A stretch of DNA of 63,749 nucleotides, filler included, from Licmophora abbreviata (taxonomy: Eukaryota): NCBI GenBank assembly GCA_900291995.1. It is 19 parts of 19 records of this genome, joined end to end, with 100 filler letters (N's around TTAATTAATTAA, not from the genome) between each part and the next. Parts side by side here need not be neighbours in the genome. Positions count along the whole stretch, not along the records: positions 5,706 to 10,212 come from OLMU01000554.1; positions 10,313 to 13,099 come from OLMU01000556.1; positions 13,200 to 15,026 come from OLMU01000557.1; positions 15,127 to 20,988 come from OLMU01000558.1; 15 more parts are not named here. One strand, written 5' to 3'. Shown in pieces: positions 8,377 to 63,749 of this stretch (position 1 is its first letter; the number at the start of each line of letters is the position of its first letter). Under the pieces are notes generated by a model. That model searched no databases, had not been told where the DNA came from, and was given only the letters and a program-made list of their open reading frames with translations. The translations under genes and the position numbers were made by a program.

Positions 8377-11350
8377 ATGCGTTTATCTGTTGCTCTCAGC
8401 TCAATCGTTGCGATCTTGGTCGTCAGCAACGCTGATGGCGCACGTGAGGGACTCCTCCGCAAGCTTGCCGGGCTCTTCACCGATGGACGAGGAAGTGTTC
8501 AGGTACGAGGAAGATCGTGACAATTCATGGAGAAGGCTAATCAGGATATCAATGCTCACTGATGCTGCTGTGACTGCTTTTACATTTGCTCACTTCCAGG
8601 GCCTTGAGCGACACCTGACGTACTATGACACTCCTTCGCCAACCCCTGCAAAACCAGTGCCTGTCAAACCGACACCCGCTCCGTTCATGCAGACGTCGCC
8701 CCCAGCTTCCTGCGCTTCGACTCCGGTCTGTATTGACTTTGAAGTCACTCCCGATGGCAAATCCATCGACAATGGGGCCTACGTGAGCAAAGAATGGTAC
8801 GCCAGCTACGGACTGACCATCGTTGCTAGCTCGACGGACGGTGGCTTCACTCCTAGTGGCATGGCCCGTATCTTCGATACTGCGCTCTACGATACTGAAG
8901 ACACCGACCTTGGAGCACCCAATCAGTACTGTCCGATTGCCGGTCCCGGCACGGGAGATGGAGGAAAGCCTGGCATGCCTGGAGAGAACTGCGAGCCCCA
9001 GGGAAATGTTCTGATCATTCAGGAAAGCGATAAGATGGAACCCGACGACAACGCATATGGAGGCAGTATCGAGTTCATTTTCAAGCATCCTGTCGAGCAG
9101 TTACTGTCCATGGGATTGATGGACATCGACAACCTCGAGACAGACTACTTTGAGATTCTGGTTGGCGACATGCTATCGAAACAGAAGATTGTGGGTCTCG
9201 GCGACAACTCAGTTCAAACTGAAACATTTTACAAGTCCAATGTGAACAGCCTCAAGGTTGTGGCCTCCAACTCTCTTGCTATCCGTGATCTCTGCTTCTG
9301 CCCAGGTAGCGGTGCTCCTGATGCAACACCAGCGCCTACGCTGCATCCGATGACACCAGCACCAACCCCAAAGGCTACTCCTGCGCCAGTCCCCGCAACG
9401 CCAGCACCGACTGTGCCGGCGGAACCTCTTCCGACCATCACCGTAACCTACACTGCTGTGCCTTCGACCATTAGTGAGCCCGGCGCCATTGTCACCTACA
9501 CTGTCAGTATCAAGAATACTTCCGGTCCATCCGATACTGTCACTATTGGTACCATCATTACGGACTCCTTCGGAGACTTGAACGGCCAAGGCAGTTGCTC
9601 GGTACCACAGAAAATAGCCCCTGGTGGCGAGTACACGTGCTCGTTTACGAAGCAAATTACGGGTAACGCAGGGGAGGTGAAGCCGAGCATTCTTATTGTA
9701 ACAGGGGTGGACGAAGAAGGTACCGCTGTCACTGGAAGTGACACCACTAGCGTTTCAATCATCAAAGATAACACGCCTCCGGCCCCTACTCTAAGGCCGA
9801 CACTTCCACCTACCGGTGCGCCCATCCCGGCAACACCGAGTCCAACATCAAAGGCGACTCCAGCACCAACGGCCAAGGCTACTCTAAAGCCGACTTCTGC
9901 TCCTACTCCCACCCCGGCTACATCGAGCCCAACTGTAAAACCCTCACCAGCCCCTGCCGCGAAAGCCACTCCAGCACCAACTGCCACGGCCACTACGAAG
10001 CCAACTTCTTCACCTACTCCCATTCCGGCTACACCAAGCCCAACTGTAAAAGCCTCACCAGCCCCTACAGCGAAAGCCACTCCAGCACCAACGGCCAAGG
10101 CTACTCCAAAGCCGACTTCTGCTCCTACTCCCATTCCGGCTACACCAAGCCCAACTGTAAAAGCCTCACCAGCCCCCACAGCGAAAGCTACCCCCATCCC
10201 TGCTACGCCGAANNNNNNNNNNNNNNNNNNNNNNNNNNNNNNNNNNNNNNNNNNNNTTAATTAATTAANNNNNNNNNNNNNNNNNNNNNNNNNNNNNNNN
10301 NNNNNNNNNNNNACACCGGCACCCACTTCAAGTCCAACTCCGGCGCCGACCCGCAGCCCGACGAGTGCACCGACCCCCGTACCCACGTCTGAGCCAACCA
10401 AAGCAACTCCTATGCCGACCCGTAGCCCAACACCAGCCCCAACACCCAACCCAACACCTGTACCAACTGCAAGCCCAACGCCAGTGCCTACCCCGGCACC
10501 AACTCCCTCGCCAACGCCATCTCCCACCGACTCTCCAACACCCTCGCCAACGGTGGAGCCGCCCACGTCCTTCCCTCCAGGTACCTGTTCGTCAACGCCA
10601 GTCTGCCTTAACTTCGATTCGATTCCTGAAGGAAAGGCGCTTGTTCATGGCGACTACGTCAGCACCGAGTGGGAGTCTGCGTATGGCATGACCATTACCG
10701 CTGAGTCGACGGACGGTGGATTCACGCCCGACGGAAAGGTCCGCATCTTCGATACGTCTCTGTTCGACACAGAGGACCCTGATCTTGGCGCACCAAACAA
10801 GTACTGCCCGAACTCAGGCCCAGGAGTTGGCGAGGGTGGAAAGCCCAATATGCCAGGCGAGAACTGCGAGCCGCAGGGTAACGTGCTGATCATCCAGGAA
10901 ACTGACAAGTTGGAGCCTGACGACAACGCTTACGGAGGAAGCATTACGTTCGACTTCTCTTGCCCGGTGGAGAAGCTGCTTACAATGGGCGTTATGGATA
11001 TTGATGTTGGAGAGACAGACTATTTCGAGGTCAGGCAAGGAGATGCAATTTCTCTCCAGATGATCAGCGGACTTGGAGACAACTCCATCCAGACGGAGAC
11101 CTTCAATAAACCGTCGGTCGACAGTGTCAAAATTGTGGTGTCCAACTCTCTTGGTCTCCGCGACATTTGTTTCTGTCCTGGCAGCTGCGGTCCCACCCCG
11201 GTTCCTGGTACCAAGCCCGCGCCCAAGCCAGATGCCACGCCTGCCCCCACGCCTAGCCCCAAGCCTGCTCCGAAGCCTGGCCCCAAGCCCACTCCGAAGC
11301 CTGGAATGAGAAGTCTTTCTGGATCCGTCCGTGGTTTTGTCGGTTGGTAG
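8377..11350 (+). CDS. Secreted modular Pro/Thr-rich protein A: signal peptide, Cys-domain (8711-9307), Ig-like DUF11-type repeat (~9427-9765), PT repeats, Cys-domain (10586-11188), PK tail; intron 8503-8599; spacer 10213-10312
   Basis: Exon 1 translates [42 protein letters not shown] (42 codons, GT donor) and joins in phase 0 to ORF 8390; paralogous to the gene at 14059. Confidence 0.85.
9780..10560 (+). repeat. Coding Pro/Thr/Ala/Lys low-complexity tandem repeats (e.g. [21 protein letters not shown]), broken by an assembly spacer
   Basis: Near-identical nucleotide blocks around 10020-10090 and 10130-10190. Confidence 0.85.
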
Positions 11351-11664
11351 ATTTGACCGAGTAGCGCATGGATCATTGATTGCCTTACCTTTACATGTTA
11401 TGATCGGCGTCAACGTAGTGCATAATGAAAGTAATCGAAGAGACACGACGCCGACGACCACAAGAATTTCGTTTTCGAGAGAGGTTCTACTGTTAGAGCT
11501 AGTATTGTTTGTGGCTTCCTCAAACACATGTAACCCTCCTACGAGTAGCTTCGATGCATTCAGTCGTCCCATTGATTTCCTGTCATCATCACTGGACCCA
11601 AATAGAGTTGTTCTCGTTGTTGCTGTTGTTTTCAACCACCTAATAAAATACTAGAACTATCTCT

Positions 11665-11868
11665 TTACTTCATTCGCTCCGCATTCGAGTTGGGTCCCAC
11701 TCGCTTGCCACCCATACCCGTCACAACATTGACATAGCGACGATTGTATTGAAGACGCTTCTTGGCGCGGCCGCGGGGCTGCTTCTTCTTGTCTTCCTGC
11801 GCTTCCACCTTTGGTGTCTGACCCTTTACTTTACCGGCGCGAGCGAGCGAGCCGTGAACCTTTCCCAT
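11665..11868 (-). CDS. RPS30: 40S ribosomal protein S30 (eS30), no Ubl fusion
   Basis: [21 protein letters not shown]...[16 protein letters not shown]...GPNSN. Confidence 0.97.
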
Positions 11869-12547
11869 GACGTGTGATGCGAAACTTCAATAATAAAATC
11901 TGCGAGTTTGTTTGGAACAGGAAAATAGGAATTCGTGAGTTTTCAGGAACATACATTGAACAAGCGGATGGATGGATCGAACACCGACAACAGCAAGCCT
12001 TCGATCACTACGCGAAGGTTTCTCGAAAGAAAAGTAAGAGTAGGTTGGAATCATACGCGGAGAGAAACTGCCGAAATGAATGAACCGCGCCATGGTTCTC
12101 CTTCCTCGTCGCGGTCCCCCACCAGGAACCCAGAACCTATTCTCGATATAGCAGCAGCAATCATTCGTTCCTGTCTCTTTTTCCATTTGCTCGCGCTTTC
12201 CATCCTCTTCTATCTCTATAGCATCCATGATGACAGTCATCTTGTATCTATGCCATGGTCGAGTCGCATACGGCCGTCTCGTGCTCACCTTGGTGATGTT
12301 GTGTCGCGGTGTGTGGCTGCAGTGCGGCGGTCCTACGTCCCACGTAGGAATGTACACAACCTACTAGTAACGCGGTATGATAGTCAGTTAACGAGGCCGG
12401 CGTAGCGGTGTCACGCGAGCACTCGCGCGCGCTTTCAGACTGCGCTCTGATCCCGACTGCGTCGATACATCTCATTCGAAGTCACACAGCCACTCGTCGC
12501 AGACCAGCTTGCTGCTTGCTGGGGACTCGTGGAGACATAACACGGCA

Positions 12548-13310
12548 ATGTACTGGAGTCATGCCAGGAAGCACATTTGGTATTCAACAAGAAGGAATGT
12601 GGTGGGCGACGGTTCCAGAATCCCAGATGAAAGACTTCTTTTGTGAGAAACTTTGTGGCGACGGAGTTTGGCGATCGACGGCAAGAAGCGATCTAGACCA
12701 GAAGGCGCTATTGAGCAGGCCCTTGACAGCTGTTTGCTAGTGGACGATGCAATTAAGGTCTAAAATCAAAAGATCGCAGAGATGGAGGTAGAAGAAGCTT
12801 TTGTTGCCAAACCATGGTTGTGATTGCAGATACTCGTAGGACGCTGGCTATGCCGTAAAAGTGGGCGAGATTTAGATGCTGTGATTGTCGAACTGGCTGG
12901 GGTCGCCGATCTGGTCGCGATACAGAACAACTGGAAGGCTGCCATCATGCGAAAGCTTCCCGTTACCGACAAGGCCCTAGGAAACGTCATTAGGTGGTCG
13001 ATGCTTGTACCTTTAGTAGCGATTATATGACGTGGGATATTGCGGGTGATCGCAGGTAATGGATTGACGACGATACGGATAGTACCGCGAATCGAAAGGN
13101 NNNNNNNNNNNNNNNNNNNNNNNNNNNNNNNNNNNNNNNNNNNTTAATTAATTAANNNNNNNNNNNNNNNNNNNNNNNNNNNNNNNNNNNNNNNNNNNNC
13201 GATACGGATAGTACCGCGAATCGAAAGGTTGTCGAGCTCCTCGCAGAGCAAGTGGAAGCTGCTGATTTGTTGCTCCTTAACAAGGAGGACTTGGCAGGCG
13301 TTGAGCAAGC
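12548..13310 (+). pseudogene. Degenerate CobW/COG0523 (G3E GTPase, zinc-chaperone family) remnant; C-terminal-domain fragment precedes GTPase fragment
   Basis: MYWSHA..FGIQQEGMWWATVP, EFGDRRQE, IEQALDSCLL (CobW_C-like); DAVIVELAGVAD (Walker B-like), VVDACTF, RKVVELLAEQVEAADLLLLNKEDL (NKxD); frameshifts and in-frame TAA at 13057. Confidence 0.8.
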
Positions 13311-14058
13311 AAGTCAACATCGCCGCAACCATGGCCAAAGTCACTGAACAACAAACGTCTGCCTGTGTCGTGGGTTGCCGATCCATCTTCATAGTAATCG
13401 TAGCTGTTACAGATATCGTCTATTTCTACAGTACAGTAGAGGGCATTTTCATTTCAATCAAATGATTTTCTTTTTAAATAACTATTCACATGCAACACAT
13501 TCACAGAGGAGTTTCAATCTAGCTATACGAGTGGCAATCACAACATCGCAGCATTCTCAAGCCTTCCGAGCCTTCTTTTTGCTGGGAAGCGCTACGAGTG
13601 AGCTACTGGATTGATGATGGATTATCGATCATCGGCGTGGATCGGAGTCATCCATCAGTGAGTCGAGTCGAGTCAGTCACTTGACTCGATTCACAGATTC
13701 AAGATGGTGATGGTTTGGCTGTCTCTCTTTAATGCTCAAGGGTCACATCATGCTTGCAATGACTATGACTTTCTATTCCATATAAATCCTAATAATGTGT
13801 GCATTTAGCTATTACGCCCAATGAGGTCATTTCTATATATCTTAACAAGCCCAAATCCGTTCGGGACTCCAATATAACGATAAACCAATACGTATGATTC
13901 TTATTTTCATCAAAATGTCAACAGTGTCTTTCCTTTTTCACGGTCTTCGCAACTTCATTCTCTTGCGTCGCAAAAGGCTCATAAAATCAAAGAATGGAGG
14001 CGAAAGCGGACTTTCTCACAAGTTTCATTTCCACAACGGAATCAACTCCTCAACGACG

Positions 14059-17000
14059 ATGCGGTTGAGTTCCGCTCTTAGCACGACCCTTGCGGTCCTG
14101 ATTGTCAGCAACGCTGATGCACGTGAAGGCGGGATTCTTCGCAAGCTTGCCGGGATGTTCGGCGATGATGCGCAGGCAACCGATGAGGTACGGAGTATGA
14201 TGTGCGAGCGGGCAAGTGTATGTTGCTCGTAGAATGTCTATTGCTCACTTCATCTGCTTCTGTCTTGATGATCAATATCAGCACGATCGCGACTTGATGG
14301 ACGGCTCTTGCCAACAAGTCTGCGTCGATTTCACGACCGATCGATTTGGAAAAGCTCTCGTTCACGGCGACTACGCGACCGAGTTTCCAAGCGGATTGAA
14401 AATTGAAGTTTCATCTACTGACGGGGGGTTCACACCAGTTGGCAAGGGGCGCATCTTTGATACGTCCCTAGAAGGCACTGAGGATCCCGATCTTGGATCT
14501 CCCAACGAGGCATGTCCAGTCCCGGGCCCTGGAGTGGGTTTCCGTGGCGAGCCTGGCACGCCTGGAGAGAATTGTGACCCTCAGGGCAATATTCTTATCA
14601 TCCAGGAATCAGACAAGGTTCAACCGGATGACAATGCCTACGGTGGAACGTTCAAATTCATGTTTAACTCTCCGATGAAGGTTCAATCCATCGGGCTTAT
14701 TGATATCGAGGAAGAAGTTGACACAACCCTTAAGATCTACAAGTCAGCAGGCGGCGCACCAGAGATCCTCCTGGTTGAAGGACTTGGTGATAACTCAGCT
14801 CAGGAGCAAGCAATTCAAAAGGACGACGTGGTCAGTATGACGCTTGACCTCACAACTTCTGGTGGAGTTAGCAGTGTCTGTGTTTGCGATGGATCCGGCA
14901 CAAGCCCATCACCAACGCCCAAGCCCACTCCTGACCCAACACCCAAGCCAACTCCTGATCCAACACCTAAGCCAACGCCTGAACCCACGGCAGACCCCAC
15001 AAAAGACCCTGTGCCTTCGACAAGTGNNNNNNNNNNNNNNNNNNNNNNNNNNNNNNNNNNNNNNNNNNNNTTAATTAATTAANNNNNNNNNNNNNNNNNN
15101 NNNNNNNNNNNNNNNNNNNNNNNNNNATTGTGATCGGAGCAGACGAAGAGGGATCCCCTGTGTCCGGGAGCGACAGCACATCTGTCACCATCAAAGCCCC
15201 ACCCACTGAGTCACCAACCAATGCCCCGACAGCGGCGCCAACTCCAAAGGGGAGTCCTGATTTAACTCGAGCGCCTACGGCCGCCCCCACTGCCAAGGCG
15301 ACGCCCTCACCGACAAACCAACCGACGGCTGCACCCGAGCCGAACCCCACGATCACAGTCAGCTACAGCGCTGATCCATCGACCGTCACCGAGCCCGGAG
15401 CTACCGTAACGTACACGGTCGTCATCAAGAACACATCGAGTCCTACCGACACTGTCACCCTCACGAGCCTCGTTTCTGACTCTTTTGGCGATCTGAATGG
15501 TGTAGGCGGATGTTCTGTACCACTTGTAATCCTTCCAGGAGAGGAATACTCATGCTCTTTCATCAAGGCGCTAACGGGCGTCGTGGGTGAGACCAAAACG
15601 TCCATTCTCGTTGCAGTAGGATTGGACGAAGAGGGATCCCCAGTGTCGGGAAGCGACATCAGCTCCGTCACAATCGAAGCTGCATCTACCAAGAACCCCT
15701 TTACACAGATGCCGTCCGCTCCCTCACCCGCGACTGGACCGAGCAGTGCCCCATTCCTGCAGACGAGCCCCCCAGTTCCTTCTGGTGTATGTGAATCTAC
15801 ACCTGTTTGTATCGACTTCTCTAGCTCCCCAGAGCGTGAGCTTGTCCACGGTGACTATGTGAGCAAGGAGTGGGCGGCCATGTACGGAATGACCATTACT
15901 GCCTCTTCTACCAACGGCGGTTTCACGCCTGGAGGCATGGCCCGAGTGTTTGACACTTCACTTCACGATTCCGAGGATCCTGATCTTGGCGCGCCGAACG
16001 AGCATTGTTCGATCCCTGGTCCAGGAAGTGGCATCGGTGGAATGCCCGGTGAACCGGGAGAGAACTGTGACCCACAAGGAAATGTTTTGATAATCCAGGA
16101 ATCGGAGAAAGATGCACCGGATGACAATGCATGGGGCGGAAGTATCGAGTTCAGCTTCGCTTGTCCGTTAGAGAGGCTACTGACGATGGGAATTATGGAC
16201 ATTGACAATCTCGAAAAAGATTACTTCGAGATAGTGCACGGTGGTACAGTCTGGAAAAAGAAGATTATCGGACGTGGAAACAACTCGATTCAAGATGAAA
16301 TCCTTGACAAAGAGGATGTGACCAGCATCAAGGCTGTGGTTTCCAATTCCCTCGGCGTCAGATACATCTGCTTCTGCTACGACTCTGATCAGTGTGGACC
16401 ATCGCCCACAACTCCTTCTCCGAGTCCAGACGCAGAAACGGACCCAACTACGCCCCCGAGCCCTTCAGCAACGGCAGAGCCGACGTCTGCCCCTACTGCG
16501 AAGGCGACGCCAGTGCCAATTTCCGAGCCGCCAGCACCTACTAAGGAGGCAACCCCTGTACCAACTGAGCCGACGGAACCAGCCCCTAGTCTCGTTGTCA
16601 CATATACTGCTATTCCACCCATCGTCTTTGCGCCTGGTGCGACTGTCACGTACTTCGTGACCGTGAAGAACACCTCCAGTTCGACCGATCCTGTTACGCT
16701 CAGCAGTCTGACTTCAGATACGTTCGGCGATTTGGATGGGCAAGGAACGTGTTCTTTGGTAGAGACCATTGCCCCAGGAGGTCAATACACGTGCACGTTC
16801 ACCAGGCAAGTCACTGGAAACGCTGGCGAGACCGTGATATCAATCGTCGAAGCGTCTGGAACGGATAACGAAGGCACTCCTGTGACTGGTAGCGATGACG
16901 CTTCTGTAAGGATCGTCGCGAAGGCGAATCCTTCTCCGACGGACAATCCAACTCCTTCTCCAACGCTTTCAACAACTTCCAACCCAACGGCAAACCCTAC

Positions 17001-20000
17001 GGCGCTTCCAGAACCAGATCCAAGTATCACCGTGACATATACCGCTATTCCTCCCAAAATATTTGAGCCTGGAGCAATCGTTACATACATGGTTACTATC
17101 AGCAATACCTCATCATCGACAGATCCTGTGACCATCTCTAGTCTTACGACCGATACGTTCGGCGACTTGGATGGACAGGGGACTTGTTCCATACCGGAGA
17201 CAATAGTTCCTGGAGACCAGTTCATCTGCTCCTTCACAAAGGAAATTGCAGGATCAGCGGGAGAGACCACGACGTCAGTTGTTGAAGTCAATGGAATGGA
17301 TGATGAAGGTTCTCTTGTGTTCGGCACTGACGACGCGACAGTGACATTTATCGCCGCACCTACCCCTTCTCCAACAGCAAACCCAACTCCCTCTCCTACG
17401 AGCAGCCCAACAACGAACCCAACTCCCTCTCCTACGAGCAGCCCAACAACGAAGCCAACTGCTTCTCCAACGAACAGCCCCACAACGAAGCCAACTGCTT
17501 CTCCAACGAACAGCCCCACAACGAAGCCAACTGCTTCTCCAACGAACAGCCCCACAACGAAGCCAACTGCTTCTCCAACGAACAGCCCCACAATGAAGCC
17601 AACTTCCTCTCCTACGAACAGCCCAACAACGGCTTCTCCAACGAGCAGCCCAACAAAGAAGCCAACTCCAACCCCGACAGCTTCTCCAACTGCAGACCCA
17701 ACTCTTCGCCCAACGAAGAGTCCGACTAGCCCACCAGAGCCCGAGCCAAGCTGTAAACTTGTGTACACGGCCTCCCCTTCCAGTGTGCAAGAACCTGGTG
17801 CTACAGTAACGTACACAGTTAAGGTGAAGAACACGTCGTCGTCGACCGACACCCTGACAATTGGAACGTTGATTGCAGATACCTTTGGCAACCTAAACGG
17901 ACGGGGAAGCTGCGTGATGGAACAAACACTCGAGCCAGGCGAGGAATACTCGTGCGTCTTCACGGCTACAGTAACCGGAATCGCTGGCAGTGTCACGAAC
18001 AGCGTAGCTGTCGCCTCCGGAATTGATGACGAGGGGACGGCTTGTTCATGCAGCGATGAAGCGGAAATTTTGATCAGCGCTGCCCCGACGAAAGCACCGA
18101 CTACGTCACCAACTTCTGCTCCCACTGTGTCGATGACTCCTGCGCCCACTACACAGAAGACGCCAAGCCCAACAGATTCACCAACGCCGATTCCCGAGCC
18201 CAACCCAAGCATAGTTGTCACCTTTACCGCCAATCCGTTGACTATCACTGAGCCGGGCAGTACGGTCGAGTATACCATTGTCATCAAGAACACTTCTAGT
18301 CTCACAGACACGATCACCATCACAAATCTGATCTCTGACACTTTCGGAAATATCAACGAGGAAGGCAACTGTTCGCTACCGCAGGCAATCGCGCCTAATG
18401 GAGAATACACATGTACTTTCTCCAAGCAAATTGAAGGTACAGCCGGTGAGGCCAAACCGTCTGTCGTAATAGCCTCTGGAACGGACGACGAAGGAGTTTC
18501 TGTGTCTGACAGCGACGCTACAGTCGTTATTATCGTAGCCTCTCCTACAAAGTCACCCACAAAGACACCCACGCCTGCACCTACCATCCAGGTGACGCCT
18601 TTGCCGACGAACAAACCGACGCCTGATCCGGAACCCGTTCCAAGCATCACGGTTTCCTTTAATGCCGTTCCACCGACCATCTTTGAGCCTGGCGCGACCG
18701 TTACTTACGTTGTCACAGTGGCAAATACGTCCAGTTCCACCGACCCTGTCCTCATCACCAGCCTTATCACGGATACGTTCGGTGATTTGAACGGCCTAGG
18801 CACTTGTTCAGTCTCAGAGACTGTCGCGCCTAACGAACAGTATACTTGTACGTTCACTAGAGAAATCACAGGGAATTCTGGAGATGTCACAACGACAGTC
18901 CTGCTAGTCTCTGGTGAAGACGACGAAGGAACTTCAGTGTCGGGAAGTAGTGACACGACTGTGACAATCATTGCCGCGCCCACTAAGACGCCGACCAAGG
19001 CACCGGTCAATCCTCCTACTTCGTCGCCAACGTCGAGCCCAACCAAGAGCCCAACCAAGAATCCAACGAGCAGCCCAACGTCGGCCCCGACAAGCAAACC
19101 CACACCGGTCCCCGAGCCGCTGCCAGGTATCACTGTCGTCTACACTGTTGAGCCCTCAACCGTTTTTGAGCCAGGAGCGACTGTGACGTACAAGGTCTTG
19201 ATCAAGAACACGTCCAGTCCGACCGATCCTGTCACCATCAGCACACTTGTAGCGAATACCTTTGGTGATTTGAATGGGCAAGGAACATGCGCTGTTCCGC
19301 TGACGATCGCGCCGGGAGGAGAATATGAATGCATGTTCACCAAGCCAGTTAGCGGGTCTGCCGGAGAGACGAGAGAGTCAGTCGTTGTCGCCTCTGGAAC
19401 TGACGATGAGGGCGTACCCGTCTCTGGAAACGACACAGCAAGTTTGACGATCATTGCGGCACCGACAAAGAGCCCGACAAAGGCCCCGACAAAGGCCCCG
19501 ACCAAGGCCCCGACCAAGTCCCCCACCGCCGCTCCGACGGTGAAAGCAACTCCCAGTCCGACGATGACCCCGACATCCGCTCCCGAAGCTGCTGTGACTC
19601 CAGCCCCGACGCCTTCGGATCCAAGCGATTCTTGTAAATCGACGCCAGTGTGTATTGATTTCTCCAGCGCCCCTGGAAAGGATATCAGTCACGGCACGTA
19701 TGTAAGCGAGGAATGGTTCAGTGCGTATGGAATGACCATTACTGCGGCTTCCACCGACGGTGGATACACGCCGAATGGACAGGCCCGTATCTTTGATACT
19801 TCGCTGTACAACACCGAGGATGCCGATCTTGGAGCACCGAACGAGAATTGTCCGATCCCAGGTCCTGGTGTGGGCGAAGGCGGCAAGCCAGGCATGCCGG
19901 GAGAGAACTGTGAGCCGCGTGGCAACGTGTTGATCATCCAGGAATCTAACAAGGCTGCCCCTGACGATAACGCCTATGGCGGAAGCATGAAGTTCGAATT

Positions 20001-20406
20001 CACCTGTCCCGTGGAGAAGTTGTTGACATTGGAAGTGCTGGATATCGATGAGACTGAGATGGACTTCTTGGAGATAACAAGTGGCGACATGGTGTACACC
20101 GACGAGATCTATGGACTTGGAGACAACTCTATCCAGACTGTGGAGATCAACAAGTGGAATGTCAAGAGCATTAAGATAGTGGTCCCCAACTCTCTTGGAG
20201 TGAGCGAGATCTGCTTCTGCCCCGGCGACTGCGGCTTTGTACCCATCTCTCCCGCCCCGGTTGCGATTGCCAATACGGCCAAGCCAACACCCGCACCCAA
20301 ACCAACTCCCGCGCCAACGCCTGTACCCAAACCAACGCCCGCGCCAACTGGAAAGCCACAGTCGATGAGGAGACTAGCAGCTGTCCGAGATGCGCTTGGG
20401 ATTTAA
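14059..20406 (+). CDS. Secreted modular Pro/Thr-rich protein B (>2000 aa): signal peptide, three Cys-domains (14309-14887, 15790-16395, 19633-20232), at least 7 complete and 1 partial Ig-like DUF11-type repeats, PT linkers; intron 14188-14281; spacer 15027-15126
   Basis: Exon 1 MRLSSALSTTLAVLIVSNADAREGGILRKLAGMFGDDAQATDE (43 codons), phase-0 intron at the equivalent position to gene A; joining across the spacer is inferred from strand and architecture. Confidence 0.85.
17368..17690 (+). repeat. Coding minisatellite, 36-nt unit (KPTASPTNSPTT), about 4 near-perfect copies plus degenerate flanking copies
   Basis: aagccaactgcttctccaacgaacagccccacaacg repeated over ~17452-17595. Confidence 0.92.
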
Positions 20407-21686
20407 ATGCCTCGATGGATGCATATATGTGAGCACCTTGGGGAATGGTGATTGCATGTGATCTGTTCGAAACAATGCATTGTGATAGTTAATATACATG
20501 TCAATGAAAGTACGCAAGCAAGAACAACACCGTAAACTAAATATGAGAACGTACTCCAAGCTGATCGCCTCATGCATATTGCGCTCTGGGCTATCCTGTT
20601 TATTCCATGGAACATTTGAGTCGACTGAAAGTCGAACAATTCGAAAGATTGACTTGGACGAGCATCATCATTCACCCCCAGCCACTCGCTCACTTGCAGA
20701 CGATCTTTTCACCCACTCCCTTCTAAGGCATCGCGTATGGACTGAGGATCCTATACGTTTGAGTCTGAGAGCCACGCACAATGTGTATCTAACTCGCACT
20801 AATACAGCCGACTAATGAATTGATTGCAATCATTGTTTAACAGTTAAGGTCAAGAGAGCTGTAGACGCTCTCGTCCTTCGTGTTCATGGTACAATAGCCT
20901 GCTGAAACCGAATTGGCTTGGCTAGCTGCGAGACGATCAATCAATCGGTCGGCCTTCAACGATTGACAGCTGCGCCTTTTTTGTGTCANNNNNNNNNNNN
21001 NNNNNNNNNNNNNNNNNNNNNNNNNNNNNNNNTTAATTAATTAANNNNNNNNNNNNNNNNNNNNNNNNNNNNNNNNNNNNNNNNNNNNGAGCAAATGCTA
21101 GTGAAAAATATCATACGTATTTCAAGCGTACACACCTTTGCAGCGTCGCGCGCCCACCATGACGCGCAGCATCTGTGCGAGAGTCGAGTCAAATGATTCA
21201 TTCGAATCGAACCTACCGTCTGTACTCCCCCCGTCCGAAACCTCTCGGGGAGATCTGGCCGTCCATCCAAGTCAGGCCGTCCATCAGCGCGCCGTGCTTC
21301 GTGACAACAGACAGCACGGATGGTTCTCGCGACGGAGAGAATAAGTTTGGCGTCAAGACGAGGGTAAATCGATCGCTGCAGCACGTTGGAGCATTCTCCT
21401 ACTTCTGTGAGGCTTCTCTGTCCTAAGGTATTGATCTGATTTAGATCTAGAACTTGAAAGATTGACCAGATTTGCGGAAAGCCAAAGCAAGACCACAGTT
21501 TCGTATCTTGGCTGTCAGCTCTATACCAGATCTACGTGATTTCTGCGTGGTCATCCCTTTCTGTCTCGGCGACACGCACGGCATCCGCCCATCGAAGCTT
21601 GGTCCTCCAACGCAACGCACTGTGCGATAGATAGATAGTGTTGATCATATTCGACAACAGTCAAAGACGACGACGACGACGACAAA

Positions 21687-23652: not shown

Positions 23653-25308
23653 ATGCCACCTCGAATGTTTCTGTGGAGTCGGCACACTGTCTTCTTTATG
23701 CTTAGCGCCTTGGTTACGAGCAGCAGCGCCAAAACGACAATGACGACACTTGCCTTCACATCCGCCAGCACTCGTCGCGTCGTGAGATCCGTCACAACAC
23801 GTCCCTCTCCTTGGACGTGCTTCTCGATCAAAGCCTCTACTGCTCTTGATACATCGACTGCCGACACTCCTGCGGAACTGCCCGAATTCTCCAGCAAACA
23901 AGGATATCTGGACTTTTTGGAAGCCGCGTCGGCACTCCCCAAGGGATTTGCCACGGGCACGGCTTCTGGGACCTTTGTCTCGCAAGAAGCTCCCGCCATG
24001 GGCGATTTGCCCATTCGAGGGACTGTTATTCATTTGGTGAGTCTATCCAGAATTTCGTAGTGTGGGAAAGTAGTACTTGATGTGTGACTGGAGACATCTT
24101 TGTTCGTTGCTCCTTGCTCAATCAAATGCATCATATGCGTGACTCTTTCACAGACTGAAGGACCAACCGACAATTGGGCTGCTGTCTTTACACAAAATAA
24201 GTTTCCTGGCGCTCCCATCCACGTGGGTCGCTCGCGTTTGGAACAGGGCGGGCCGCTCCATGCCCTTGTCATCAACAACAAGGTATCCAATGTGTGTTCC
24301 GGAGGCGACGGAGTGGCAGACTCCGAACGAGTCTGCGAGGCTGTCGCCGACGCATTGAACCTGCCGGGTGGGGCGGAGTCCGTCTTGCCCTCCTCGACGG
24401 GTGTGATTGGATGGAGACTTCCGGCGAAGGAGTTGGCAGAGCAGGTGGTGCCCAAGGCGGCGAAAGCGATGCAGACCAAGAGCGGCTTGGATGCGGCCAG
24501 TGCCATCATGACGACGGATCGGTACCCAAAGTTGCGGAGCAAGACGCTCTCCAATGGAGCTAGGATTGTCGGTATTGCCAAGGGTGCTGGGATGATTGAA
24601 CCTAACATGGCCACAATGCTGTCCTACATTCTGACGGATGCGGAGATCCAGAGGAGTGACTTGCAGCGCATTCTCACGGATGCCGCAGACACTTCCTTTA
24701 ATAGCATCTCGGTAGACGGCGACGAATCCACGAGCGACACGACGGCCTTGATTGCATCGAATCAAGTCAAAATAGGCTCAGAAGACGAGTTACAAGAATT
24801 CGAAGCGGCGCTGCGGGAAGTTACCTTGGGACTGGCCCACGACTTGGTCCGCAATGGCGAAGGAACGGGACATGTGATTCGCGTCGCGATTGCCAACTTT
24901 CCCGGAAGTGACCTCGAGGCGCGTCGATTGGGACGTCACGTTGTCAACTCGCCGCTTTTCAAGTGTGCTGTCAGTGGGAACGATCCAAATACAGGACGGT
25001 TGGCGGCAGCGATTGGATCCTTCATGGGCAAGTTTAAGAACGACGAAGGAGTCGACAAGATGTCGTTGAAACTGGGCGGACGCATCATTTTTGACAATGG
25101 CAAGTTTGTTCTCGAAGGCGATGAGGTGGAGAAGGAACTGAGCGCTCACATGGAAAACGCGCAACAAGGAGAAGAAGACGAGTATCCGCAGCACCAGCGA
25201 TGTGTCGAGATTGAAGTCGACTTCAAGAATGGAGATGCGAATGCTGTTGTGATGGGAAGCGATTTGACGAATGAATACATTTCTGTCAATGCCGATTACC
25301 GGTCGTAA
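23653..25308 (+). CDS. argJ: Ornithine acetyltransferase / glutamate N-acetyltransferase (ArgJ), probably plastid-targeted; intron 24037-24153
   Basis: STGVIG, IMTTD, AKGAGMIEPNMATML (autocleavage Thr), DGDESTSDT, YISVNADYRS; N-terminal leader with LA-FTSAS. Confidence 0.95.
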
Positions 25309-42274: not shown

Positions 42275-44407
42275 CTAGCAAAAGGTCGATATTGATCCTC
42301 CCCCGCCCGGTGCAAAGCACCCATGCAGCCCATGTGGGATATGCGTCTTGATCCAGATTTTGCATACAGGTCCCTCTTTTAGTTTTCGTTTCAGGTCAAA
42401 GACTGCTAGAAATGACGTGCGTCGGACCGCATCGAACACCGTACCAAGTAGATACGCGTCGTCCTCATTGTTCAAGTCGCCGCCGTCCTTGGGCACTATC
42501 ATGGGCTCTTCTGCAAAGTAGCGACTTCCAAACCAGTAGACATCGACATCCGTATTCGCCTCTCCTTGCTTTAGTTCCACCGTACTTGCATCTTCAATGC
42601 CTATTCGTACGTATCCGTTGGGCGGCGACGAGTCGCCCACGACATTGGAAGCAACAGCATAGACATGCTGTGCTTGCTTCGTAGCGAACTGCGGGTGCAC
42701 GACGCAGTGCTCCAAACACACATTCGATGCACCCGGTGCAATGGATAAGTCCACACACGACTGTGCGGATGGATCAATCTCCAGACGCCATAGGAACGTC
42801 GGAGGAATCACAGAAAAATCAGGGCTAAATCCGCCCCAAGCTCCAAGGAAGTCCTTGGCATCGGAAGGCGGCCATCCTGAAAAGTACGATACCAACTTGT
42901 TGGTCGTGGGGTCGCGGTACCCATGCGAAAAGTGTATCGAAAAGTTGGGTGGTATGTCCACCATGAACGGCTCGAATTGCCCTTTCGCACACGGTCTTGG
43001 CAAGACGACTGCCCTGACGCTTGCGTGTCCATTCATGCTCAGACTCTCAGCGGGCCCTTTGGTCCCCAGCAGGAACGGCAGGCGATTCATTTCCAATGCA
43101 TTCAATAGCAAGACGATGCAATCTTCCATCATGGCCATGTCGTGAGGCGCCAGGGAGCAGTTCGGAATATTGTGCGTGGACCTTGCCACCACCTCAAACC
43201 CGTCGTCGCTCCATTCGGTCAGTGTTATCTCCAAAGACTCGTCGGGAACAATGGACGACCAGTGCCAACCGACCAAGTGGTTTGTGCGAGGACAGAGCTT
43301 GGGATGAGCCGTATGTGCAGCGCCACCCAAGAACGACGGTACCATGGACTCTGGAATGGCAGTGCTCAGATCGTCTCGCAGTTTGACGGCCATTTTCGAT
43401 TTGACAAGAGCGCCGCCCATGTCATCTTCACCCAGTGTTTCGAGCGTTTCTGGGTCGATACGATACGGCAGTCCCGCTTCGTACAGAGCCAATACTTTGC
43501 CTCCAAAGGATACGACATGCGTATTTGCTGTATTCTTGAGGCTGGTTCGAAAGGCATTCCCAGCGATTTTGGATAGCAATGGCGTTGTAGGCGGGTTCGC
43601 GTTGACGCCTTGGCGTGGCGAGTCTCCAAAGACAGTCTTGAGTCCTCGTGGTGCCGTTCCAAACGTCCCACGATATGCAAATTCATTAGCCTCACTTTCT
43701 TTCTGGAAAGCTGCCGTCTCTACAAATCGCGATTGAAATGTAATCTTGCGAGGAGTACCGTCCGTAGGGTGTTTGGGAAACTGGACGCGAAAAATTAATC
43801 CATCGCCATCCAACACGTGTTGCACTCGTTCGTCGTTGACTCCCATCTTTCCCGGCCCGTTCCGATACAAGTCACCTATCAAGTCCTCTGGAAGAGTACC
43901 CTCGACCATGTCTGGTGTAATCTCGTATTCCGCAAAGCCCGTCTGGGCATCAATGAGAGGTTCACCGCGGCCCGGTGTTTCATACGAGTACCAGGCGTGT
44001 CGCCAGTCCGACAGAATGAATAAACCACGACCCAGTTCCTCCTGAGATTCTTTGGGGTGCTTGTTGGAGGAAACACAGTCTTGAAGAATCGGAGAAAGCG
44101 GCTGCGGTGCGGGGTGTAGGTACGTTGAGCCGACCGAATCGTACGGGTCGGCACTGTCGAGCGCGCGTGGTGAACGATCGTCCTCCGGGGGGATAGGAGG
44201 ACCACTGCGTCCTGTTGCAGCCGCTTTCTCCGGCGTAGTGGAAGAAGAAAACATCAACCCCCTTCCTTGAAGTGGGTTGAAACCCATGATTCGACGATTG
44301 CAAAGGTCAAGAGCGAAGGAATCCGCACGCTGCGACGCATTCAGTGCAACTGCAAGCAAAAGAAGCGCTCGTCCCGCTGCCCCAATCCCATCATAATATC
44401 TAAACAT
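42275..44407 (-). CDS. Carotenoid cleavage oxygenase (RPE65/ACO family), probably plastid-targeted
   Basis: GDLYRNGPG, HVLDGDG, KNTANT, four Fe-ligand-type His (TAHP, PHD, IHF, GLHG), EEPMIVP; leader ...RADS-FAL; start at ATG 44407 inferred. Confidence 0.92.
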   Translation of the reverse strand: MFRYYDGIGAAGRALLLLAVALNASQRADSFALDLCNRRIMGFNPLQGRGLMFSSSTTPEKAAATGRSGPPIPPEDDRSPRALDSADPYDSVGSTYLHPAPQPLSPILQDCVSSNKHPKESQEELGRGLFILSDWRHAWYSYETPGRGEPLIDAQTGFAEYEITPDMVEGTLPEDLIGDLYRNGPGKMGVNDERVQHVLDGDGLIFRVQFPKHPTDGTPRKITFQSRFVETAAFQKESEANEFAYRGTFGTAPRGLKTVFGDSPRQGVNANPPTTPLLSKIAGNAFRTSLKNTANTHVVSFGGKVLALYEAGLPYRIDPETLETLGEDDMGGALVKSKMAVKLRDDLSTAIPESMVPSFLGGAAHTAHPKLCPRTNHLVGWHWSSIVPDESLEITLTEWSDDGFEVVARSTHNIPNCSLAPHDMAMMEDCIVLLLNALEMNRLPFLLGTKGPAESLSMNGHASVRAVVLPRPCAKGQFEPFMVDIPPNFSIHFSHGYRDPTTNKLVSYFSGWPPSDAKDFLGAWGGFSPDFSVIPPTFLWRLEIDPSAQSCVDLSIAPGASNVCLEHCVVHPQFATKQAQHVYAVASNVVGDSSPPNGYVRIGIEDASTVELKQGEANTDVDVYWFGSRYFAEEPMIVPKDGGDLNNEDDAYLLGTVFDAVRRTSFLAVFDLKRKLKEGPVCKIWIKTHIPHGLHGCFAPGGGGSISTFC

Positions 44408-45053
44408 GCCGCCAGCGACCAGAAACTTTAGCAAGCGTGAGCCTCTGAACGAAAGATCCTTCAACGAACGTCCGTATGATGGACTCACATGGTCCAGCGC
44501 AGACGAAAGAACCGGAGCATACAAAATTTGAAATGTACGGTGCACATAGCATGCACCTGCGGGCTGACTTGCAATGTACCAAAATCAAAGTATTTCTCGT
44601 AGGACTTCAGTAGGAATTTGAGTTTGAAGAAACNNNNNNNNNNNNNNNNNNNNNNNNNNNNNNNNNNNNNNNNNNNNTTAATTAATTAANNNNNNNNNNN
44701 NNNNNNNNNNNNNNNNNNNNNNNNNNNNNNNNNGACCTTTTAGCTAGATTTGCTGCAATTTGATTAGATTTGGTGGTTCTGAATACTTAGGAGTTTCAGT
44801 GAGTAGTAGCTCGTATACCTATCTCGACAGAACGGCCGCGACCATCGTCTGCCTCATCAAGTGACCGCTGACGTTACGGGACTCCACGACAGGTAGTGAC
44901 GATGCACGTGTCCATTTATGTAACATCCGCACCATGCGGAGAGAGGACAGCTCATACGAGTCCCGAGCTTACGCGATAAAGACGCGTTCAGCTCAGCTAT
45001 TCCTTTCTGTCACAATAACAACTGACATATATGGAAATAAGTCGGTGATCGAT

Positions 45054-58157: not shown

Positions 58158-58400
58158 AGGGTCGTGCACATAACGTTTCATAGATGCTCATAGTAACGCC
58201 ACAATTGTTGAATGAAGGATGCAGATGATACCTATTAGCTCTTACGAAGGCGTTTGTCCATTGGACTCATCGATCCGTCGAAGAGGAGAAACGAACCAAG
58301 ATATGAGGGGTAGGGATTCATTCAGATGTTCCGGTATTTGGAGCTGACCCTCGTGTCACGGATATGATGTCATCTTCAATCTGTGATAGTCTCATGATTC

Positions 58401-60800
58401 ATGGCATGGCCCGCCACGAATCGAATCACAAAAAACAAACCAACAAAAACGACAGCAAACTCAGTTGCGACGATGACAAGTTCGGTCGTCGATTCCCAGC
58501 TTGTCTCGCTAGACGACACAGATTGCTATGCCTCATCGTGGGCGGAAGCCGTCAAAACATCGGAAAATTCAGGAAGTTTAAAGAATCCTTGGGGTGGCCG
58601 CGGCAAAGGCGGACGACTTCTCAGTCGTCGCACCATTCAGCCTCACACTGTGGTAGTCGACGACGTGAGACTCGAGTACGTTAACGATAAGGGTCTTCCA
58701 GGCAAGATATTGTTGGAGCGCGCTACACTTAAGTTACTTTCGAAGCACGTATATGCTATTGTTGCGAGAAATGGGAGTGGAAAAAGTACCCTCCTGAGAC
58801 GAATCGATGCTGGCAAGATACCAGGATTTCCAACCCACCTGTCATCTATATACATCCCGCAAGAAGTGATCGTAGACAAAGAGAAGACACCTCTCGAGAT
58901 GGTTCTGAGTCACCACGATAAGTACTGTCACGAATCCACGGCGTTGGCTCAAGGAAAGATCGAGGATCTCGAGGATCAGTTGGAACAGCTCGACGTTTCG
59001 TCGTCCGACGCAGATGTGCAAAAAATGGAAAGTCTATGTGAACAAATTTCTCAGCTTGAAGATGAAGCGGACTGCAACTACGACGACATGGTAGCACGTC
59101 TTCAGGCTCAGGAATCCTTAACGTTCTTTGGGTTGGACGAGAGTCACTGGCATACACCAACAGGCCGCCTCTCAGGAGGTATTCAAAAGAAAGCTCAGCT
59201 AGCGACCGCCCTGTTTTGCAAAGCAGACTTGCTTCTCCTGGACGAACCTACAAATTTTCTGGATGTTCAAGGCTTGATCCAGCTGCGTCGACTCATTTCG
59301 ATATGTACAGAAAGGAATACTACCGTTCTACTCGTCTCGCACGATGTCGATCTCATAAACGACGTTGCGTCCGACGTCATGCATATTTCACAGCAGTCGC
59401 TTGAGTACTATCCGGGAAACTATAGAGACTTTCTGGGATACAAACAACAGAAGGACCTTCACAGTCTCCGAGAGCACGTTGCCCTAGAAAAGAAACGCGA
59501 TGCCATGCTTCAAACGCTGGATCACTTGAAGAAGCAACCCGTGCCGAAGCGAGGCGGCGCCAAGAAGAAGGGACGTGCGATCGAAAGTATGAAAAAGAAG
59601 CTTGAAAAGCAAGGCATTGAGCATGATGAGAAGGGTCATCGATGGAAGCAACAAAAATCGGGAACAGGTTTGTTGAATAGTCTTATATGCTGTGCTATCG
59701 AGCGGGAACCGCATCAATGCACTAACGCATCTCATCTCTTGTGCGTACAAAATAACAGGCATTAAACAAGGATCCATTAACTCGGTCGATGCTTCCTCAA
59801 GGAATAGTTTGTCCCACTCGCAACTCCTCAAGCGAGNNNNNNNNNNNNNNNNNNNNNNNNNNNNNNNNNNNNNNNNNNNNTTAATTAATTAANNNNNNNN
59901 NNNNNNNNNNNNNNNNNNNNNNNNNNNNNNNNNNNNGCACCTGTCCCGGACAAGGCTGTACAGTTCGTGTGAGTATTGCGCTCATTCTCTGAGTCTCGTC
60001 TTGAGTAGCGATTCTTTAGTTTCTCACGTTACCCTGCATACCACAGCTTCCGGAACCCTACCAGTACATGGGGCGAGCCCCTTATCGTGGCGACAGATTT
60101 GGGCCATGGTTACGGTGCCCCCGAAGAAAGCCCACCGACGCAGCTTGATCCGTTGGCAACGCTGGGCATGAAGAAGACGGGATATCTATTCGATTGTGTT
60201 GATATTTGTGTCGACGAAGGTTCAACGACGTGTATTCTTGGCAGCAATGCGTCTGGCAAGTCGACGCTTTTGCGGCTACTCGCTAAGCTCGAGCAACCAC
60301 TAGAGGGCAAGATTGATCATGCCCAGGGCCTAGGCATCGGATACTTCGACCAGCATGTCGTCGACGAAATGATCGAGTCAGCTGATAGCGAAGGAAAAGA
60401 AACGACGACGTCGTTGTCATTCCTCGCAAGACGTTTCCCAAAAAAGACTGAGCAGATCCTGCGTGGGGAGCTCACGTCGTTCGGTATCGGGCCAGATCGT
60501 GCAGTGACCGATGTGCGATTCCTCAGCGGAGGAGAGCGCAGTCGGGTCTGCCTGGCCGCGCTCATGCTGTTGGATCCACAGCTGTTGATCATGGACGAGC
60601 CCTCTTCGCATCTTGACGTCGAAAGCGTCGAGGCACTTATCTATGCACTGCGACAGTGGAATGGGACGGCGGTCATGGTCTCGCACGACGCCCACTTGAT
60701 TCGGTCGCTAGGTGGGTCGTGCTATATCATCATGCCGCACGAAGGCAAGATTCGGAGGGTACCGGACATCGATGCTTACCTCAAGACTTTCACTCTTTGA
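58401..60800 (+). CDS. ABC-F family ATPase (two NBDs, no TM); introns ~59668-59758 and ~59968-60046, spacer 59837-59936
   Basis: RNGSGKST, LSGG, LLLLDEPTNFLD, VSHD, YPGNY; second NBD GSNASGKST, LSGGERSR, DEPSSHLD, VSHD. Confidence 0.93.
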
Positions 60801-61889: not shown

Positions 61890-61989
61890 NNNNNNNNNNN
61901 NNNNNNNNNNNNNNNNNNNNNNNNNNNNNNNNNTTAATTAATTAANNNNNNNNNNNNNNNNNNNNNNNNNNNNNNNNNNNNNNNNNNNN

Positions 61990-62190
61990 CGTAACCTGTT
62001 TGCCACCCTTCGTGTTGGGACCTTGTTTACCACCTTTAGTGCTTCCTTGCTTGCCCCCTTTCGTGTTCGTAACCTGTTTGCCACCCTTCGTATTGTGACC
62101 TTGCTTACCGCCTTTGATGCTTCCTTGCTTGCCTCCTTTCGTGTTCGTAACCTGTTTGCCCCCTTTTGTGGCGATGCTCTTCTTTCCTCC
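61990..62190 (-). repeat. Coding KGGKQ repeat, 7 copies arranged as a 78-nt (26-aa) higher-order unit, running into a spacer
   Basis: TKGGKQVTN-TKGGKQGS-(I/T)KGGKQG(H/P)N twice plus the start of a third unit. Confidence 0.92.
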
Positions 62191-63749
62191 ATCCTTTCCG
62201 GTGGAGTTTCCATCTAAGCCTCCTTGACCATCTCCTTGAATCGTCAAGATGGCTTCGTCGCAGGCGCGTAGTTCGTTTTTATCTGTGACACAAGCACTAT
62301 TGGAGAGGGATAGATCTGCGGGTGAGCCGCCACAACTCCGCTTTCCGCCGATGCTCCAAGATGCAATCTGCCAATCGGGATTCTCACGCTCGTGCGGGCC
62401 CTCTTTTTCCCCCCAACCTTCCAGAAACTTGTCCGAACATGAAATTTGGAGGGTGAACGGTGCATCACCGTTTGGAGGGTTCCACTCAACCTGCTTGTTT
62501 TTCACAGAGAGTAACGAACTTGAATCGTCGATCCCATTGAGAACTGCAACACCGTTATTGTTACCCTCAAGTACGTTTCCATTCACAAATACAAATCGGA
62601 AGTTACGGAAAGACTCCCCGACAGGTTCAGAAACGACGGTCGTCGATGCAATTGTTGTGTAGTCAACGGTGATTACTACCGATTGGAATGCCGGAATCTT
62701 CACGCTACAGGCAACTTCCTGCTCGAAACTAGACGAACAGTCGCCGTCTCCCCTGACTTCTATGCCCTCAATACTGAGTAGACTATTGACGGAGTCAGTG
62801 ACTTTCAAGTCAGTCAAGTCGGCCTCCCCAGTGTTGAAGACCTCAATCGTGAACGAATGAGAAGATCCGGGCAAAACAGTATCCGGACTGAAAGTTTTTT
62901 CAATCTCAACGAATGCAGTTCCATCGTGTAGGGCGGGGCTCTCGCTTGGACTTCCACTGGGACAGTCGTCAGAGGGGGGCAGTGTCATGTCAACAGAAAT
63001 TGGTGCTGACGTCGGAAACGCGGGAGGGCCTCCACTAATCGGTGCTGGAGTGGGAGGTTCAGCATCACAATTACCAGGACAGAAACAAATATAACGAAGT
63101 GCGCCCGAGCTCTGTAAGGTAATTGTAAGTTCTCGTACTCCTTCGAACTCATCAAGAGACGCTGTTTGAACTGAATTTTCACCAATTCCCTCGATTTCGA
63201 GGAATTCGGTTGTTTCAACGATCCCTCCATTGCCCTGAAGGACAGTTACAATCTCCGCAAGTGCGGAATTGTTGGAATAAATATTCATAAGACCCACATC
63301 AAGCAGCTTATCAAGTTCGCAGGCGAAATTGAAAACAAAGCTTCCACCCTCAATCTCACTATTTGGTGAAGTTGTTCCCCCCTGCTGGATAACAATCACA
63401 TTTCCGACGGGATCGCAATTCTCTCCCAATTCACCAGGTCGGCCGCCCTGACCAGTTCCAGGTCCAGGTATACTACAAGCCTCATTCGGACTGCCAAAAT
63501 TCATATCGGTCAAATTTGCGGTGGCCGTGTCCAAAACTCTCGGTCGTCCAGATGCATCCGTGGACGTAGTCGTCATCGTTATACCATACAAACTAAACCA
63601 TTCCATGCTCAAAAAGTCGCCGTGTTGTATTGCTGAATTGTCAGGAAACATGGCAAAATCCAGACACACCTTCTCGCTCGAGCTACAAGGGGTCGTAGAG
63701 GATGAGGGTGGTGCAGACAGAGCTTCGGCTGGGCCCGCCGTCGGTAGCG
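61990..63749 (-). CDS. Modular protein C, presumably extracellular (both ends missing): divergent Cys-domain (63687-63067), DUF11-type Ig-like domain with ~110-aa insertion (~62917-62240), KGGK repeat tail
   Basis: Frame open to the window edge; GSPNEACSIPGPGTGQGGRPGELGENCDPVGNVIVIQ matches the gene A/B domain; IEKT...FTIEVFNTG...VTDS...LSNSACV; signal peptide not in window. Confidence 0.85.

Follow-up and report, generated by a model that had tools for sequence, protein, structure and literature searches.

The 63,749-nucleotide stretch of Licmophora abbreviata DNA analyzed here (assembly GCA_900291995.1; the window) consists of contigs strung together with 100-base spacers between them, and three of its genes, which we call A, B, and C, carry copies of a Cys-containing domain of about 200 amino acids. 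This is a real, unnamed, and widely shared surface-protein domain that is strongly expanded in this diatom. We consider it somewhat better than an even bet (probability roughly 0.58) that A, B, and C encode mucin-like adhesion or matrix proteins that are secreted, have no anchor, and bind multivalently, with a repeated head that recognizes glycans in a Ca2+-dependent manner. By their sequence features, the three genes are members of a large lineage-expanded family characterized by a signal-like exon, linkers of Pro/Thr/Ser, spacers of the DUF7507/DUF11 type, RxL motifs toward either end, and the lack of an anchor.

A sequence-only reading of the window had proposed six domain copies in three genes with six conserved cysteines, and both points held. 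The copies (193 to 203 amino acids; two in A, three in B, and one within the window in C) were located and aligned, are 35 to 69% identical, and keep all six Cys invariant, and pairwise BLASTP scores among them range from 120 to 292 bits, whereas none of 200 shuffled copies exceeds 25.8 bits. Across the 15 copy pairs, third codon positions differ by 50 to 74% and second positions by 16 to 38%, as expected of coding DNA under purifying selection. The same reading had been unable to assign the domain to a named family, and we agree: no Pfam or NCBIfam model covers it in the window copies or in 11 bacterial members, and none from Pfam covers it in 64 aligned family members. Pfam, NCBIfam, and PDB searches likewise gave no match of the domain to a described carbohydrate-binding module (CBM) family; the PDB sequence matches obtained (the best being a uridine phosphorylase, E 0.014) were weak and implausible and were rejected as chance. 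The nearest ESM Atlas clusters, at 0.88 to 0.90, are unnamed bacterial hypothetical proteins and serve as leads only. A description of the domain is absent from the literature searched, and one could still stand in papers under subscription or in supplements that are closed (the Amphora trail proteome and Trailin Table S6).

Genes A and B have the features of the diatom mucin-like adhesive or extracellular polymeric substance (EPS) class, namely a signal-like N terminus, Pro/Thr/Ser stalks, and no anchor (Table 1). As had been noticed before, they share a signal exon and an intron position: hydrophobic first exons of 42 (A) and 43 (B) codons are followed by phase-0 GT..AG introns of 97 and 94 bp. 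The signal-peptide calls come from a hydrophobicity scan rather than from SignalP, and the same scan found no hydrophobic tail and no transmembrane or glycosylphosphatidylinositol (GPI)-like C terminus in either gene, in support of an unanchored form of the stalked, secreted architecture suggested earlier. Pro, Thr, and Ser make up 62% of the A and B linkers, and RxL motifs, which are processing sites in diatoms, lie close to both ends of both genes. The immunoglobulin (Ig)-like spacers of gene B match DUF7507 (E 1e-26) and TIGR01451 (E 7e-9) above the hidden Markov model (HMM) cut-off, and the DUF7507 match of gene A's single Ig repeat in the window falls under it. A and B each span an assembly gap (10213-10312 and 15027-15126, respectively), so that the one-gene status of each depends on contig order; for gene A, contig C555 (G000) matches 10313-10521 at 98% and supplies a second Ig repeat, an overlap that supports one gene of at least ~1,070 amino acids. 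Gene B reaches at least 2,050 amino acids.

For gene C, the earlier description of a gene with a single copy is probably wrong, as contigs C578 and C579 next to it add three further domain copies along with a similar signal exon and intron, and contig C576 adds a matching C-terminal part. Gene C probably spans C579, C578, C577, and C576 and would then contain, besides a similar signal exon, the domain in four copies together with Ig repeats and tails rich in Lys/Gly; this join is read from contig order and from a paralogue on C692-C693. Across A, B, and C there are two to four domain copies per gene. Lys/Gly/Gln-rich repeat tails are present on gene C (minus strand; Table 1) and on a paralogue (L060, L071); their KxxK spacing is reminiscent of polyamine-modified silica-associated proteins, and alternating Lys and Gln might permit cross-linking.

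With one domain copy as the query, the diatom's own genome gave 90 matches among 91 candidates, on 60 contigs in ~26 clusters of neighboring contigs; this count is a lower bound and includes a few partial matches. The paralogues are mostly 41 to 68% identical to copy B3, and those inspected are mostly arrays of one to five domains on Pro/Thr/Ser linkers. One Ig repeat as the query matched 55 of 56 candidates. It is scarcely credible that these genes are bacterial contamination or silent pseudogenes: while both modules have close bacterial relatives and no transcript of the genes was seen, the GT-AG introns lie at matching positions, RPL18A, AMPK beta, RRP40, and UNC-50 are eukaryotic neighbors in the window, the same genome holds silicon transporters (11 matches), the domain is spread over many contigs, and the frames show codon-position bias and are intact over up to 1759 amino acids. 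The introns, silicon transporters, and eukaryotic neighbors led us to reject contamination. Matched against 15127-20980, one of three sequencing runs yielded seven pieces, short and of low depth and in some cases ending in tagmentation adapters, and the other two yielded none; this region has no intron, so run matches there are uninformative on expression.

Searching outside databases with a profile of the domain, a check proposed with the sequence-only reading, returned 2,637 representatives of 50%-identity clusters at an E value of ≤0.001 (270 at 1e-30), most of them unnamed. The named eukaryotic records are Synedropsis CCMP1620 and Gedaniella CCMP2646, both transcriptome-derived, and a Tiarina fusa transcriptome, where the record is possibly from prey. 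Named bacterial carriers include Synechococcales, Leptolyngbya, Acidobacteriota, and metagenome-assembled genomes of Pseudomonadota and Chthoniobacteraceae, and the distribution in bacteria is patchy (7 of 201 genomes in a cyanobacterial sample and 4 of 301 in a Pseudomonadota sample, with the seed genome counted in each). Aligned with each other, the diatom profile and the bacterial profile reach a probability of 99.9%. Among the best 120 relatives listed for the Ig repeat, all 13 with a taxonomic name are bacterial, and the spacers are themselves members of the DUF7507/DUF11 (TIGR01451) repeats of bacterial surface proteins, with up to 57% identity among those listed; bacterial repeats are joined head to tail, whereas those described here sit in an intron-containing diatom gene with mucin-like linkers between them.

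Domain contexts were scanned in 32 long matches, out of 150 listed, together with 23 other proteins. [quoted passage not shown] These homologue contexts, in which the T9SS, RTX, and PEP-CTERM carriers are bacterial surface proteins, add support to the adhesin or matrix role suggested by the sequence-only reading, while the Ca2+ part of that suggestion comes solely from conserved Asp and Asn residues. They also bear on an alternative, in which the domain is a structural block, that is, a Ca2+-rigidified spacer or self-associating cross-linker in a wall, stalk, or mucilage fiber that has no outside ligand. Copies at both chain ends and in the middle, arrays of up to five or six, conserved residues that are acidic or Gly/Pro rather than exposed aromatic, and RxL motifs and Lys/Gly-rich tails reminiscent of diatom cell-wall proteins would all suit such a block, but we think it unlikely, as true spacers (DUF7507 and SdrD-B) are separately present, and a domain that forms the whole passenger of small bacterial proteins and is appended in single copy to enzymes of the diatom fits a binding module better than a spacer.

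Individual members vary in composition. L047 (G000:C5638) has five domain copies on a trypsin-like protease, L053 (G000:C749) has the domain on an M43 metallopeptidase, and L051:4416-8531 (G000:C5333) joins it to Calx-beta, a legume-lectin domain, and a glucose/sorbosone dehydrogenase, a combination that looks bacterial and that P0127 has in similar form. Divergent versions of the domain, often richer in Cys, are carried by P0144, P0165, P0178, P0198, and P0108, proteins without a name (P0144 has five in tandem; P0108 has one, with a stalk and a transmembrane-like tail) that may come from other eukaryotes or giant viruses. Several members, among them L048 (G000:C6037), P0111, and P0118, end in another Cys-rich domain of ~300 amino acids that has no Pfam match.

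The beta-sandwich anticipated by the sequence-only reading is borne out by a high-confidence AlphaFold2 model of copy B3 from a 64-row alignment (predicted local distance difference test [pLDDT], 96.2; predicted TM score, 0.91), with a long loop region at residues 56 to 97 and a Gly/Pro/Asp-rich insert of ~40 residues in the predicted jelly-roll. AlphaFold and Foldseek had also been proposed as a check, and the matches to solved structures are modest: the top VIA-align row is 9q5u, a putative CBM of Aeromonas salmonicida (Z 9.8; root mean square deviation [rmsd], 3.5; 131 residues aligned), and the next ones are 9i2l, BtuJ2 (Z 9.3, rmsd 4.2, 163 aligned), 8x8h, a CBM (Z 9.0), and CBM22 (Z 9.0). 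A model of a bacterial copy (pLDDT 85) has the same fold class (9q5u, Z 10.1). As modeled, the domain is a galactose-binding or CBM-like jelly-roll, which specifies a fold class and neither a family nor a function. It shares its predicted sandwich class and its position as a binding module on fibrillar secreted proteins with CBM modules (9q5u, 8x8h, CBM22, CBM8, and CBM61) but differs from them in having no sequence similarity, 7 to 17% identity in structural alignments, and the large Gly/Pro/Asp insert.

The BtuJ2 match raises the possibility of a scavenger of a scarce small ligand, either vitamin B12, as for DUF4465/BtuJ proteins, or a trace metal, that is held in mucilage by its stalk. BtuJ2 gave the longest structural overlap, more DUF4465 chains were listed, and an ESM Atlas DUF4465 cluster appears at 0.80, a level flagged there as often chance; the DUF4465 proteins are surface-exposed bacterial augmented jelly-rolls with stabilizing Ca2+ (PMC13398666). 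However, none of the 64 + 11 members matches PF14717, the DUF4465 pocket is described there as aromatic with a conserved (N/G)TPAY loop whose motif is absent from the consensus sequences of our domain, and a multidomain mucin architecture with ~90 copies on mucin stalks, together with viral collagen-like carriers, fits poorly, which makes this explanation improbable.

These viral carriers are the sole close structural matches: predicted collagen-like proteins of Fadolivirus (A0A7D3V5T2) and of two pithoviruses, Pithovirus LCPAC104 (A0A481Z4M9) and LCPAC101 (A0A481Z3G2), match over the whole domain at E 2e-15 to 6e-14, with TM scores of 0.75 to 0.81 and 27 to 28% identity, and the next match has a TM score of 0.38. 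Based on the models, the heads of these giant-virus proteins probably belong to the same family, carried on another kind of stalk. Three exact-pattern scans of viral contigs (copy B3, domain alignment A1, and P0144) found no relative, which does not contradict the structural match.

Residue conservation was assessed in 428 distinct domain sequences, each covering no less than 85% of the profile and labeled bacterial by record name where available and otherwise by architecture. The best-kept polar positions (copy B3 numbering) are D63, D65, N70, N92, E104, D111, D112, D137, and N165, and 54 of 67 own-genome copies, 53 of 61 bacterial-labeled copies, and 210 of 300 unlabeled copies retain every one of five core Asp/Asn positions. 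The Cys73/Cys93 pair is distributed differently (66 of 67 own-genome, 281 of 300 unlabeled, and 1 of 61 bacterial copies), and this one pair is, in the sequences compared, a mark of diatom-type copies. The sequence-only reading had overlooked its near-absence in bacteria, as well as the ~90 copies and the fact that the domain and Ig repeats are common to bacteria (the domain also to giant viruses). Near-invariance of the putative binding residues, rather than diversification, also speaks against a recognition or defense repertoire, in which diversified heads, acting as decoys or receptors, would recognize bacteria, viruses, or mating partners and build no matrix. The size and spread in identity of the paralogue family, loop aromatics specific to this genome, and fusions to proteases and an oxidoreductase are in favor of such a repertoire, but A and B lack a membrane anchor or signaling part, and we regard it as a poor prospect.

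Our results lead us to favor a mechanism in which the PDD, DxD (137-139), GDN, and pre-terminal loops, which should lie at one end of the modeled sandwich because strands alternate, form a Ca2+ site. D63, D65, D111-D112, D137, and N165 (copy B3) would chelate the Ca2+, and the site would bind glycans or other acidic surface ligands, a model borrowed from the PA14 modules of RTX adhesins, which are Ca2+-dependent CBMs that bind sugars via loop-held Ca2+ (PMC12077191); the acidic loops of our domain suggest Ca2+ binding of a like kind, and no chain described as PA14 is among the fold matches listed. Several heads on a long, glycosylated, Ig-stiffened chain would then bind multivalently, cross-link extracellular polysaccharide, and tie the cell to surfaces or other cells, while the same head attached to secreted enzymes might serve as a tether. 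The head and Ig spacer may have been acquired from bacterial surface proteins by horizontal transfer, after which the diatom-type head would have gained disulfides and been amplified by tandem duplication and shuffling.

The origin was examined in a quick LG+G4 tree of 115 of 264 dereplicated rows, comprising all 45 bacterial rows, all 15 unlabeled rows without the Cys pair, 18 of 63 own rows, and 37 of 141 unlabeled rows with the pair. One side of its main branch holds 43 of the 45 bacterial rows, 13 rows without the pair, and 1 with it, and the 18 own rows all fall together, along with one unlabeled row (SH-aLRT 94), which fits an expansion within this lineage. The domain is probably bacteria-derived.

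Several points weigh against the adhesion or matrix reading and the origin that we attach to it. Ca2+ binding, ligand, secretion, and localization are all inferred, and the acidic clustering is read from strand alternation rather than taken from coordinates. Classical CBMs bind through exposed aromatic residues, and the aromatic positions conserved in all groups sit in or beside strands, with the loop aromatics (columns 46 and 116) largely confined to the diatom's own genome. Z scores of 9 to 10 are barely above the 7 to 8 of unrelated sandwiches, and the tied top rows include a B12 binder, so that they indicate the fold class and no family or function. Synedropsis and Gedaniella, the named diatom relatives, are araphid genera, which disfavors a raphe-specific trail role. 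The main split of the tree has an SH-aLRT support of only 90, and 2 of the 45 bacterial rows, both long, lie outside the bacterial side; because the tree is unrooted and the coverage filter removed most of the divergent bacterial copies, transfer from bacteria is inferred from breadth, divergence, and the bacterial Ig stalk.

A known diatom system offers a parallel. The Trailins (CaTrailin1-4) and the mucin-like CaFAP1 and Ca5609 are, like A and B, very large signal-peptide proteins with Pro/Thr/Ser stalks and no anchor, and the Trailins also share with A and B the use of a domain common to bacterial surface proteins of several anchor kinds and of Cys-containing modules between stalks (10.1101/2023.03.06.531300). 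Their CAA domain (pAdhesive_15, PF20597) is, like the present domain, one module spread over several secretion and anchoring systems, but it is a beta-helix like that of ice-binding proteins, whereas ours is a predicted antiparallel, CBM-like jelly-roll sandwich; as modeled, the family parallels the choice-of-anchor-A Trailins with an unrelated fold. The Trailins were placed in trails experimentally, by proteomics and antibodies, while A, B, and C are known here from sequence alone. Trailins fused to GFP were retained within the cell in the same preprint. DUF1 and DUF2 of CaTrailin4 and Ca5609 are six-Cys repeats, too, set between Pro/Thr/Ser regions, and their proteins are described as diatom-specific outside known domains, which sets them apart from the present domain, which is not diatom-specific. 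PF20597 has no match in five gene segments or 64 family members, and the same model does match a separate CAA domain of P0298; over the diatom's own genome it found nothing, with control genomes equally silent, so that no absence is shown. No von Willebrand factor D (vWD) Pfam match was found in the gene segments and no GDPH motif in the six copies. Frustulin ACR and pleuralin PSCD repeats, of ~50 and ~90 amino acids, are a misfit to a 196-amino-acid sandwich.

Only tentatively would we go further and propose that bacteria, giant viruses, and diatoms share a Ca2+-dependent lectin family, so far undescribed, which serves all of them as the attachment head of fibrous stalks. In this version, both head and Ig stalk would have passed from bacteria to a diatom lineage, where the head gained disulfides and rose ~90-fold in number to become the main adhesive or matrix protein system, an alternative to CAA and GDPH; on balance, we lean against this full version. 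Very few species account for what is known of the proteins by which diatoms stick to surfaces and form biofilms, and CAA and GDPH leave some of these proteins uncovered. Our findings define a surface-protein domain that has no name and comprises 2,637 sequence clusters across bacteria, diatoms, and probably giant viruses, and provide fresh candidate genes for diatom biofilm glue or matrix, a compact, well-modeled 196-amino-acid domain with named candidate Ca2+ ligands, and an HMM-ready family to look for in proteomes of trails, EPS, and cell walls. That diatoms have mucin-like proteins carrying domains derived from bacteria is already a known theme, and the architecture is of a known kind, which limits the surprise.

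Table 1. Features of genes A, B, and C in the window (positions along the whole stretch)
Feature	Position	Strand	Basis or remark
Gene A exon 1, signal-peptide-like N terminus and pro-region with RKL motif	8377..8502	+	hydrophobicity scan, max KD11 2.8
Gene A intron, 97 bp, GT..AG, phase 0 (predicted)	8503..8599	+	
Domain copy A1, 197 aa	8711..9301	+	sequence comparison
Gene A DUF7507-type Ig-like repeat	9434..9766	+	second repeat on G000:C555, in gap
Gene A Pro/Thr/Ala/Ser stalk	9767..10585	+	111-bp tandem repeat 9857-10188; gap 10213-10312
Domain copy A2, 197 aa	10586..11176	+	sequence comparison
Gene A Pro/Lys/Thr tail, RSL motif, stop codon at end, no membrane anchor	11177..11350	+	
Gene B exon 1, signal-peptide-like N terminus, homologous to that of gene A	14059..14187	+	
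Gene B intron, 94 bp, GT..AG, phase 0 (predicted)	14188..14281	+	
Domain copy B1, 193 aa, immediately 3' of RDL motif	14309..14887	+	
Gene B, end of Ig-like repeat after the gap, linker, full DUF7507-type repeat (15349-15681)	15127..15681	+	gap 15027-15126
Domain copy B2, 196 aa	15790..16377	+	sequence comparison
Gene B, six DUF7507-type Ig-like repeats (starts 16588, 17023, 17749, 18208, 18643, 19126) with Pro/Thr/Ser stalks between	16588..19458	+	
Gene B 36-bp tandem repeat	17371-17631	+	
Domain copy B3, 196 aa (used for structure model)	19633..20220	+	
Gene B Pro/Thr/Lys tail, RRL motif, TAA stop, no membrane anchor	20221..20406	+	
Gene C Lys/Gly/Gln-rich repeats, reaching into gap	61990..62190	-	matching continuation on G000:C576
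Gene C DUF11 Ig-like domain	62647..62910	-	HMM E 1e-6, over cut-off
Gene C divergent domain copy, 203 aa, several acidic residues lost	63079..63687	-	sequence alignment

Elsewhere in the window lie ordinary neighbors, namely an RPE65-type carotenoid oxygenase (42278-44584, minus strand), ArgJ (24088-25305, plus strand), and a gap-split ABC ATPase (58398-60797, plus strand). Contigs C555 (639 bp), C574, C575 (12.9 kb), and C576 of G000 are numbered between window contigs but lie outside the window, which has gaps at 10213-10312 and 61890-61989; C574 is 77.5% identical to window positions 61284-61789, pointing to a local duplication. G000:C845 carries three tandem silicon-transporter units within ~4 kb, with long open frames of 710 to 1334 amino acids. 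In Phaeodactylum, Phatr3_J48356, annotated as DUF11-containing, appears among the promoter candidates in an oval-morphotype study (PMC12113381).

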